Assembly (NCBI GenBank): GCA_951406725.2 | Contig: OX597820.1 | Span: 64,976,001-65,040,000 of the forward strand | Source: Octopus vulgaris | Lineage: Eukaryota | DNA length: 64,000 nt | Direction: 5' to 3' | Shown: positions 4,146-35,117 of the stretch, piece after piece | Layout of the letters: every line of letters begins with the position of its first letter | Numbering within the stretch: position 1 is the first letter of the stretch | Program-made: the position numbers and the translations under genes | Notes under the pieces: generated by a model | Told to the model about the DNA's origin: nothing | The model's input: the letters and a program-made list of their open reading frames with translations, nothing else | Database searches by the model: none

Positions 4146-4888
4146 AAGGCGGAGAGCTGGCAGAATCATTAGCACGCCGGCCGAAGTGCTTAGCGATATT
4201 TCATCTGCCGCTACGTTCTGAGTTCAAATTCCGCCGAGGTCGACTTTGCCTTTCATCCTTTCGGGGTCGATAAACAAAGCACCAGTTACGCACTGGGGTC
4301 GATATAATCGACTTAATCCGTTTGTCTGCCCTTGTTTGTCCTATCTGTGTTCAGCCCCTTGTGGGTAGTAAAGAAATAGGTATTTCGTCTGTCTTTACGT
4401 TCTGAGTTCAAATTCCACCGAGGTCGACTTTACCTTTCATCATTTCGGGGTTGATAAATTAAGTACCAGTTACGCACTGGGGTCGTTGTAATTGACTTCA
4501 TCCCTTTCTCTATAGTTGTTTGCTCCATCTATGTTTAGCCCTTTGTGGTCAAAATAGAAATAGGTATTACGTCTGTCTTTACGTTCTGAGTTCAAATTCC
4601 GCCGAGGTCGACTTTGCCTTTCATCCTTTCGGGGTCGATTAGATAAGTATCAATTACGCACTGGCGTCAATATAGTCGACTAAATCCGTTTGTCTGACCT
4701 TGTTTGTCCTCTCTGTGTTTAAACCCTTGTGGGTAGTAAAGAAATAGGAATTTCGTCTGCCGTTACGTTCTGAGTTCAAATTACGCCAAGGTCGACTTTG
4801 CCCTTCATCCTTAATACCAGTTGCATACTGTGGTCGATCTAATCAACTGGCGCCAAAAGTTTCGTGCTTTATGCCTAGAGTAGAAAAG
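4146..4888 (+). mobile_element. SINE family A tetramer (head + ~184-bp internal tandem units) with target-site duplication
   Basis: Units restart at about 4379, 4563 and 4748. AATATTTGCTTATCAAAGGCG occurs at 4131-4151 and 4889-4909. Confidence 0.88.
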
Positions 4889-16264: not shown

Positions 16265-16797
16265 TGAAAAATGGGAGAAAATCTCTATAAGAATTTATCA
16301 AGTAGCCATTGCATCTCCACAGTACTAAGGAAAATATTGATACCGCACAGTAAAAATTAATCATTCAACACTAAAGATTAATGTTGTGTAATGCAGATGA
16401 ATAATTTTGTATTGGTACAAAAATACAAGTTTCTTTAGTCAAAATATACACTAAGCAAAATATCGAAACTGGGCAGAAATACTTTAATAACTTACACTCT
16501 ATACCGTAAAACGCAATACTTAACACAGCCAAAATCTCCACTGACTTCAACTGCCACCAGAGATATCCATCGTTAATATACAAACCAAGTCTACCCAAAG
16601 CCAAACCTTCAGCATATAAGACGCAGATCGACTCTGGCGGGAAATTTTAGAGAAAAAGTGTGCTTTGTATACCGGAATATACAGTCTATCTATTTCAACT
16701 ATTTTAACGTTCGCTTCACCGATAAAAGAATCATAGGACAGAAATATTACAAATTTACCGAGAACTGTCTCCAGGAGTTGCCTAATTATGAAAATAA

Positions 16798-17045
16798 GAA
16801 CAATTGACTTTCAGTAAGAAAGATGTTTTCTTACTGCTTAACTTTCTACTTAAATTGTGTTTTAGTATTCCGTGCATCAAAGACGTGACGTTAACATAAC
16901 TGCAAAGGATACATGGATTTTGGTTATTTAGTAGAAGATATGAAACACATTACCGTGACACAGTTGTAAAATTTACAGACAAAATAGATTTCATAAATGG
17001 TGAGCTGTGGTATTCTCATTTTTCTATTTTAGTTTGATTATTGTT
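16798..17045 (+). repeat. left copy of a ~248-bp direct duplication
   Basis: Aligns end-to-end with 17474-17722 (about 14 substitutions and 2 small indels by eye). Confidence 0.95.
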
Positions 17046-17473
17046 GGATCTTTTCGGTTTGAACGGCAGTTTTTTCTAGCGGTGTCATATGAAATTGTCA
17101 CCCATAATTATGACCCTAGTATCGATCTATTGCATTTCAATCTGTTTTAGGGTTAGGGTTAGTTAAGGTTAGGGGTGGGGGAAGGGTATAGTTTTTTTCT
17201 TCGCAAATGTAAATAAACCCAAACTGTTTCTTAAACGAGGGATATATTCATACGGCACAGAATGCTTTTTAACTCAATAGACGTCACTGATTGGTTGAAA
17301 TAGCAGAAATTGAAGAAAAAACAACAACAAATATCTTACAAACTATCGAATTCTCTCAATAAAGCCAAGAGAAAAAGATGTTTTATAAGCACATTCCACC
17401 AGTATACGAAGTTTAAAATGTTTTAGTTATCTAGAAATTATGTTAAAAACTGCCGTTCAAACCGAAAAGATCC
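17046..17473. mobile_element. non-autonomous TIR element (MITE) with internal telomere-like repeats
   Basis: Perfect 29-bp TIRs GGATCTTTTCGGTTTGAACGGCAGTTTTT at 17046-17074 and 17445-17473. TTAGGGTTAGGGTTAGTTAAGGTTAGGGG at about 17147-17175. No ORF. Confidence 0.9.
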
Positions 17474-17722
17474 GAAAAAATTGACTTTCAGTAAGAAAGA
17501 TTTTTTCTTACAGCTTAACTTTCTACTTAAATTGTGTTTTAGTATTCCGTGCATCAAGGACGTGACATTAACATAACTGCAAAGGATACATGGGTTTCGG
17601 TTATTTAGTAGAAGATATTAAACACATTACCGTGACTCATTTGATTTGCAAAACTTACAGACAAAATAGATTTCATAAATGGTGAAAAATTCTCATTTTT
17701 CTATTTAAGTTTGATTGTTGTT
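17474..17722 (+). repeat. right copy of the ~248-bp direct duplication
   Basis: Begins immediately after the right TIR and matches 16798-17045. Confidence 0.95.
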
Positions 17723-34389: not shown

Positions 34390-35117
34390 TTATTCTTTTA
34401 TCCTTTTACTTGTTTCAGTCATTTGACTGCGGTCATGCTGGATCACTGACTTGAAGGGTTTTTTTAGTCGAACAAATCAAACCTCAGGACTAATTTTTTA
34501 AACCTGGTACTATTTCTATCGGTCTCTTAGATAGAACCGCTAAGTTACGAGGACGTAAACACATCAAAACAGGTTGTCAAGTGGTGATGAAGACACAAAG
34601 ACAACGCAGAAACATACAGGCAAGTGGGAGCTCGGAACCATGACGTTAAGAAACAAACTTCTTATTTCTTTATTGCCCAAAAGGTGCTAAACGTAGAGGG
34701 GACAAGTAAAGATAGATAAAGGGATTATGTCGATTACATCGACCCCACTGCGTGACTGGTACTTAATTTATCGGCCCCGAAAGGATGAAAGGCAAAGTCG
34801 ACCTCGGTGGAATTTGATCACAGAACGTAGCGGCAGACGAAATACCTATTTCTTTACTACCCAAAAGGGTCCAAACACAGAGGGGATAAACAAGGACAGA
34901 CAAACGGATCAAGTCGATTATATCAACCCCAGTACGTAACTGGTACTTAATTTATCGACCCTGAAAGGATAAAAGGAAAAGTCGACCTCGGCGGAATTTG
35001 AATTCAGAACGTAGCGGTAGACGAAATACCGCTAAGCATTTTGCCCGGCCTGCTTAGTTTCTACCACCTCACCGCCTTCTTGCCACACCTTTTGCCACAC
35101 AGCCACATCTGCGCCTA
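34390..35117 (-). mobile_element. SINE family B split by a family A dimer (34663-35077)
   Basis: The B head breaks after aacaaacttctt and resumes at gccacac...gccacatctgcgcct. TTCTT is duplicated at both junctions. Confidence 0.78.

Follow-up and report, generated by a model that had tools for sequence, protein, structure and literature searches.

Hybrid element insertion of the P element was reportedly described by Gray in 1996 and by Preston in 1996. According to the accounts of P elements given in PMC3744419 and PMC2775673, hybrid element insertion, which is accompanied by flanking rearrangements (PMC3744419), and sister-chromatid transposition place an element at the junction of a flanking duplication or deletion, and the junctions themselves are made by the transposase. 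The locus studied here has a comparable anatomy. While the P-element events were induced in the laboratory, we are dealing here with a natural, fixed record that concerns about 5% of a MITE family and mostly spans 23–270 bp. Tandem direct duplications made by a transposase, together with reciprocal deletions, are likewise reported for reversed-ends transposition of Ac/Ds in maize (PMC3744419). As set out there, two elements are required for this reaction, and each repeat is left with an element at its start (PMC3744419), whereas a single element lies between the two copies in the MITE family. That source counts 3 such cases among 7,611 maize hAT insertions (PMC3744419), compared with 15 of 306 full copies in our data, the criteria being different and the rates not strictly comparable.

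Variable direct repeats of 8–514 bp around an element with TIRs have been described for IS1549 and IS1634 (PMC2266710). These elements are bacterial and belong to the IS1634 family, in which long repeats are characteristic, whereas 83% of the MITE copies carry short TSDs. The ends of the MITE family have their likeness in the Merlin superfamily (IS1595/IS1016-related), for which TIRs of 24–462 bp, a terminal GG and a TSD of 8 or 9 bp are given as the definition (PMC8101967); the family possesses a 29-bp TIR, GG..CC ends and an 8-bp TSD. Judged by its ends and its TSD, it is likely to be a member of Merlin. Long flanking duplications are absent from the description of Merlin contained in PMC8101967, and searches of the open literature yielded no report that such duplications recur as a class in animal Merlin or MITE families. 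They are best read as a known side reaction that proceeds here at an unusually visible rate.

Structure of the window locus

The window is the whole stretch of 64,000 nucleotides that was analyzed. Its coordinates are used for the features of the locus:

16790..16797, + strand: 8 bp preceding the left copy, perhaps a worn remnant of the original TSD; weak, A-rich
16798..17045, + strand: left copy of the duplicated target segment, 248 bp
17046..17473, no strand assigned: non-coding MITE of 428 bp with Merlin-like ends (GG..CC); no ORF of 80 codons inside
17046..17074, + strand: left TIR, 29 bp
17146..17188, + strand: G-rich tract with three TTAGGG hexamers; internal, a family-wide feature
17445..17473, - strand: right TIR, 29 bp, fully complementary to the left TIR
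17474..17722, + strand: right copy of the duplicated target segment, 249 bp

Alignment confirmed what the initial annotation had observed, i.e., a 428-bp element with perfect TIRs (29/29 positions complementary) and abutting direct flank copies that is devoid of a short TSD. Both TIRs are touched directly by the flank copies, which possess 248 and 249 bp, are 89.3% identical when gaps are counted, and differ by 16 substitutions in 243 aligned bases and by two 5-bp indels. No TSD of 7–10 bp was found at the element (6/8 mismatches). Six of the eight bases at 16790-16797 agree with the eight that open the right copy, and the aligner carried the left copy on across them.

Since the duplicated segment has exactly two matches across the 2.8-Gb genome, both of them at the window locus, it represents target DNA; the flank copies are neither LTRs nor a piece of a larger repeat. 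The element differs by 3.3% from the majority sequence of its family and the flank copies differ from each other by 6.6%, values that fit an insertion and a duplication of similar age. A single-strand fold detected at the element (z = -5.65) is accounted for by the 29-bp TIR stem. Elsewhere in the window, at 4197-4812 and 34663-35030, there are tandem arrays of a 184-bp unit with 3.3 and 2.0 copies, respectively; we take this unit to be SINE-like.

The locus in contigs from other organism labels

We compared contigs from four runs with other organism labels at the window locus. In organism E, contigs run across the left junction (16974-17071) and also across the right one (17450-17557). Each of the two distinct flank copies has contigs of its own in organisms A, B, and E. 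In the left copy, a 13-bp deletion is common to organisms B and E; organism D is without cover over the duplication. These data refute the possibility that a haplotype merge during assembly had created the structure. Since it is common to the labels with cover, it must be older than the split of the organism labels. None of the four runs contained an empty or precursor allele at the window locus (best-supported joints; organism D without cover) or at L286:4613-5744, where the 30-bp case is bridged in no run. At L286, two contigs enter the 175-bp segment in all four runs, and this duplication is therefore also common to the organism labels; organism B holds the segment-to-TIR junction as well.

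Copy number, TSDs and duplication sizes in the MITE family

The 29-bp TIR has 11,066 exact matches in the genome, and a first look for the window element gave 3,111 candidates. We estimate roughly 10,700 copies, with partial and sibling elements counted in (131 of 254 unselected ends were exact). The family has the features of a MITE: a length of 428 bp, no coding capacity, TIRs, a high copy number, and a TSD in 256 of 307 copies. As full copies we accepted elements of 330–520 bp with both TIRs at four mismatches or fewer. From 310 distinct copies collected, 307 with at least 300 bp of flank were kept, 298 of which had at least 1 kb. This sample is made up of the nearest copies and of pattern matches among the matches listed, mainly from contigs 1–3; duplications above about 1.2 kb and copies missing an end fall outside the counts.

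A short TSD was present in 256 of the 307 full copies, 32 had none, and 19 rows contained a long duplication, defined as one of at least 18 bp that abuts both TIRs. The best-fitting short TSD measured 8 bp in 236 cases, 7 bp in ten, 9 bp in nine, and 10 bp in one. Integration with a target duplication of hundreds of bases, which had been proposed for the family, is not supported as its rule, and the 256 short TSDs likewise speak against an element of the IS1549/IS1634 type, in which insertion usually gives long repeats of variable length. Removal of two microsatellite cases (L009, L153) and of one double count (L286) from the 19 rows left 16 events, with duplications of 23, 23, 24, 25, 30, 64, 69, 71, 80, 87, 175, 184, 248 (the window locus), 254, 270, and 467 bp. 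Apart from the window locus, long duplications thus occur in 15 of 306 full copies (4.9%; 95% CI 3.0–7.9). The family is therefore a recurrent generator of tandem direct duplications, as the initial annotation had suggested. Regarding the counter-reading given there, ordinary TSDs are indeed the rule among other copies, but the window element does not represent a one-off insertion at an existing junction, since the long form recurs.

In all 16 events, an intact element was located exactly at the duplication junction, the copies having been preselected for both TIRs. When the same rule was applied to random cut points, 26 of 606 had an abutting duplication; by eye, the matches listed fall within microsatellites or longer tandem arrays, as opposed to two-copy duplications of unique sequence that stop at the cut. 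A score-only rule was passed by 2 of 300 mismatched flank pairs, at low identity. The mean divergence from the majority sequence was 3.1–3.3% in all three TSD classes. With regard to size, 10 of 15 events measured 100 bp or less and five fell between 23 and 30 bp; a uniform distribution over 18–1100 bp was rejected (p=1e-9), and a log-uniform one over 18–300 bp was not.

Extrapolated roughly, about 5% of some 10,000 copies would correspond to some 500 events. Tandem duplications made by a transposase, elsewhere known mainly from induced P and Ac crosses, can be counted here as a natural record in the genome of an animal. Copies with long duplications are misread by annotation that relies on TSDs.

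Target sites at the ends of the duplications

From 207 normal sites, we derived a 16-bp palindromic target preference in which A occupies position -1 and T position +1 (64%), with weaker positions as far as four bases. A single wide stagger leaves outer half-sites only, whereas two captures leave a whole site at each end of the duplication. For the 15 events scored in this way (L403 omitted), the inner half-sites reached 0.67±0.29 (n=30) and the outer ones 0.68 (27 usable), compared with 0.94 for normal half-sites (leave-one-out; inner versus normal, p=0.31). Local shifted windows scored -1.15, and none of 20,000 permutations reproduced the value of the inner half-sites. T at +1 or A at -1 was present inside the duplications in 17 of 30 cases, compared with 31% in local sequence (p=0.004) and 64% at normal sites. 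An earlier run with 14 events had given 0.48 for the inner half-sites (p=0.054 versus normal). The two inner half-sites of the window locus scored -0.52 and -1.54, which is within the normal spread and gives no support by this locus alone.

Since both ends of the duplications resemble complete 8-bp target sites, the data argue for two captures and against the single widely staggered cut that had been put forward for the window element; overall, we consider two separate target captures to be highly probable. The inner-half-site test tells two captures from one giant TSD by sequence alone, and can be used on any family, including IS1549/IS1634.

Proposed origin of the duplication

In our best explanation, to which we assign a probability of about 0.5, the 248-bp repeat stems from a second, local hybrid-end (sister-chromatid) reaction of the transposase on a MITE that normally transposes by cut-and-paste with an 8-bp TSD. 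The suggestion of an alternative transposition thus stands as the best reading, in the form of the hybrid-end type, with the two target sites per duplication being a result at the family level. At the outset, a normal insertion would have put the MITE at one edge of the 248-bp segment. Once the region had been replicated, the transposase would have brought together the right end from one sister chromatid and the left end from its sister, and this hybrid would have inserted at a new 8-bp target 248 bp away, either on an element-free homologue or on the repaired sister. One product would then read segment-element-segment, while its reciprocal would retain the element, lack the segment, and have no matching TSD. 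We infer this order of events and this route from the observed anatomy, the 8-bp norm, the recurrence of about 5%, the two full sites per duplication at the family level, the short-range sizes, and the no-TSD class.

Under the hybrid-end model, one expects events of short range with a whole site at both ends, an element that stays intact, and deletions as the reciprocal products. The flanks of the 32 no-TSD copies were target-like (0.53 compared with -1.53) and scored below normal sites (1.49 in-sample, p=0.0002), and worn 8-bp TSDs are found among this class. The no-TSD copies may be regarded as candidate reciprocal deletions, a class similar in size to that of the duplications. By eye, the distal edges of young duplications showed no excision footprint; the hybrid-end route consequently needs the homologue as target or a clean repair. 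A further point against hybrid ends is that L403, the sole locus with a readable history, arose by two insertions and unequal crossover. One transpososome that captures two targets in turn leaves the same footprint as hybrid ends.

Alternative routes

The repeat could also be the product of one event in which the strand transfers are uncoupled, i.e., the excised element joins one end and the complex captures a second site 20–300 bp off or on the just-replicated sister; replication or repair would turn the long gap into a duplication, or into a deletion if the order were reversed. To our knowledge, uncoupled end insertion is not a known step for a eukaryotic DDE transposase. Like hybrid ends, this route would lead to a full target site at either end of the duplication, sizes confined to short range, outer edges that are clean, and a class of copies without TSD, and it has a bacterial parallel in the long repeats of IS1549 and IS1634, for which the account in PMC2266710 has no mechanism proposed as of 2008. 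Neighbors within 1 kb are found at 13 of 46 long-duplication and no-TSD copies compared with 25 of 249 normal ones (p=0.003, array rows removed; bystander copies inflate the difference), an excess that a primary event need not give. We hold uncoupling to be possible though rather doubtful, and equally so the more general notion that an animal Merlin-type transposase routinely uncouples its strand transfers, with ends 20–300 bp apart in about one insertion in ten and half of the outcomes duplications and half deletions. If true, it would be the eukaryotic counterpart of the long variable repeats of IS1549/IS1634, with about 500 fossil events readable in one genome. Very improbable is a route in which the transposase inserts one end and host repair the other, as in aberrant retroviral integration: such events, as PMC5041404 describes them, yield host duplications of hundreds to thousands of bases as well as deletions, but the second end is often truncated, whereas both ends are whole here and both sites fit the target preference (the copies were preselected for both TIRs, which excludes truncated cases). 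A true giant TSD, produced in a single concerted insertion by nicks that lie hundreds of bases apart, would explain the exact abutment at both TIRs and the clean outer edges; it is largely refuted by the fit of the inner half-sites to the target preference, is at odds with the short TSDs in 83% of the copies and with duplication lengths that are not fixed, and we consider it extremely unlikely.

Two independent normal insertions nearby, on the same chromosome or on different alleles, followed by unequal crossover between the elements, would also produce a segment-element-segment unit. This is precisely what happened at L403 (C20), whose arrangement is target1-E1-467 bp-E2-467 bp-E3-target2: E2 matches E3 at the first 15 informative columns and thereafter mostly E1, and the spacers are identical at 466 of 467 positions. 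A chimera test following PMC2775673 was run at L403 only, and chimerism was present there; L403:643-2868 thus demonstrates two insertions 467 bp apart, a recent unequal crossover, and a chimeric middle element. The clustering of copies, apparent from the 25 of 249 normal copies with another TIR within 1 kb, also favors crossover. However, independent insertions should give flat sizes instead of the observed concentration at 100 bp or less, neighboring copies are no more alike than random pairs (82–94% versus a mean of 90%), and none of the 15 simple events kept a parent element. Among 29 multi-copy loci, swapped TSDs between neighbors were found at L024/L403 only, apart from a weak match with two mismatches at L284. 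Because of the short-range sizes, the lack of closer kinship among neighbors, and the absence of swapped TSDs in the simple events, independent insertions are disfavored as the main source, and we regard this route as unlikely. Recent local hops are rejected as well, neighboring copies being as alike as random pairs; clustering without kinship points to regional hotspots. It might be suspected that the element landed by chance on the seam of a duplication that was already there, or that the assembly is at fault, as the TIRs are perfect while the flank copies are 6.6% apart. Yet a seam insertion would add an 8-bp TSD, which the window element lacks, the family contains 15 more cases, the divergence of the flanks is twice that of the element, and the contigs of organisms A, B, and E speak against an artifact; we judge this explanation, too, to be most improbable.

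Merlin transposases and the search for an enzyme

All 150 scored matches to Merlin transposases in the genome were above the PF12762 cut-off. Complete-looking Merlin elements with GG ends and perfect 8-bp TSDs are present at L050:642-2243 and L061:608-2395; in contrast to the MITE family, they carry TIRs of about 55 bp that belong to another family. Longer copies with the same TIR that encode an enzyme had been envisaged; inspection of 30 of the 150 PF12762 loci and of 30 of the 46 DNA matches (Merlin only) gave no transposase element with this TIR at both ends. The 3.36-kb TIR-to-TIR stretch at L094, considered as a longer coding copy, proved to be a palindrome without a transposase-like ORF. 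An intact ORF of 298 amino acids (PF12762, E 1.4e-19) is present at L101 with a near-identical TIR 630 bp upstream; a second, closing TIR was not found there. In its close relatives, which have no such TIR, the shared sequence stops about 380 bp before the TIR is reached.

At L101:6523-8451, a 75-bp palindrome upstream of this Merlin ORF is flanked by two TIRs that point outward. Sibling MITEs, which have a variant form of the TIR, were noted at L211, L224, L226, L230, and L062, one of them inside a Merlin transposase remnant. A published repeat table contains two Merlin families, and the main text of that paper leaves TSD and target site unmentioned (PMC13282606).

The internal TTAGGG tract

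Internal tandem repeats are reported for Merlin families (PMC8101967). The G tract of the window element (17146-17188) contains three TTAGGG hexamers, only two of them in tandem, and the mean number of hexamers per tract is 2.8–3.1 in each of the three TSD classes. A canonical G4 motif was found in 178 of 256 short-TSD copies, in 24 of 32 no-TSD copies, and in 10 of 19 long rows, and is absent from the window copy. The initial annotation had supposed that the tract might act through telomere-binding proteins or a G-quadruplex; a tie to the duplications is not supported by these data. Likewise, an element driven by telomere repeats was rejected, the tract being internal, neither terminal nor a long array, and without a tie to insertion type.

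Array loci and palindromes

The segment-element-segment unit seeds short tandem arrays, as seen at L286 and L403. At L286:3421-6212, three 175-bp copies are present with two elements between them, and a third element with a perfect 30-bp duplication is located 1.1 kb away; the segment-element-segment-element-segment arrangement is an expansion of the simple unit. L094:3364-6722 (G000:C1 33.772-33.776 Mb) is a near-perfect palindrome of 3.36 kb that is bounded by TIRs of this MITE family, with a half-MITE at each end and other repeats mirrored inside. At L404:3810-4774, the element is followed by two extra units of about 270 bp, each made up of the TSD and the rightmost 260 bp of the element, which amounts to a tandem amplification of one end.
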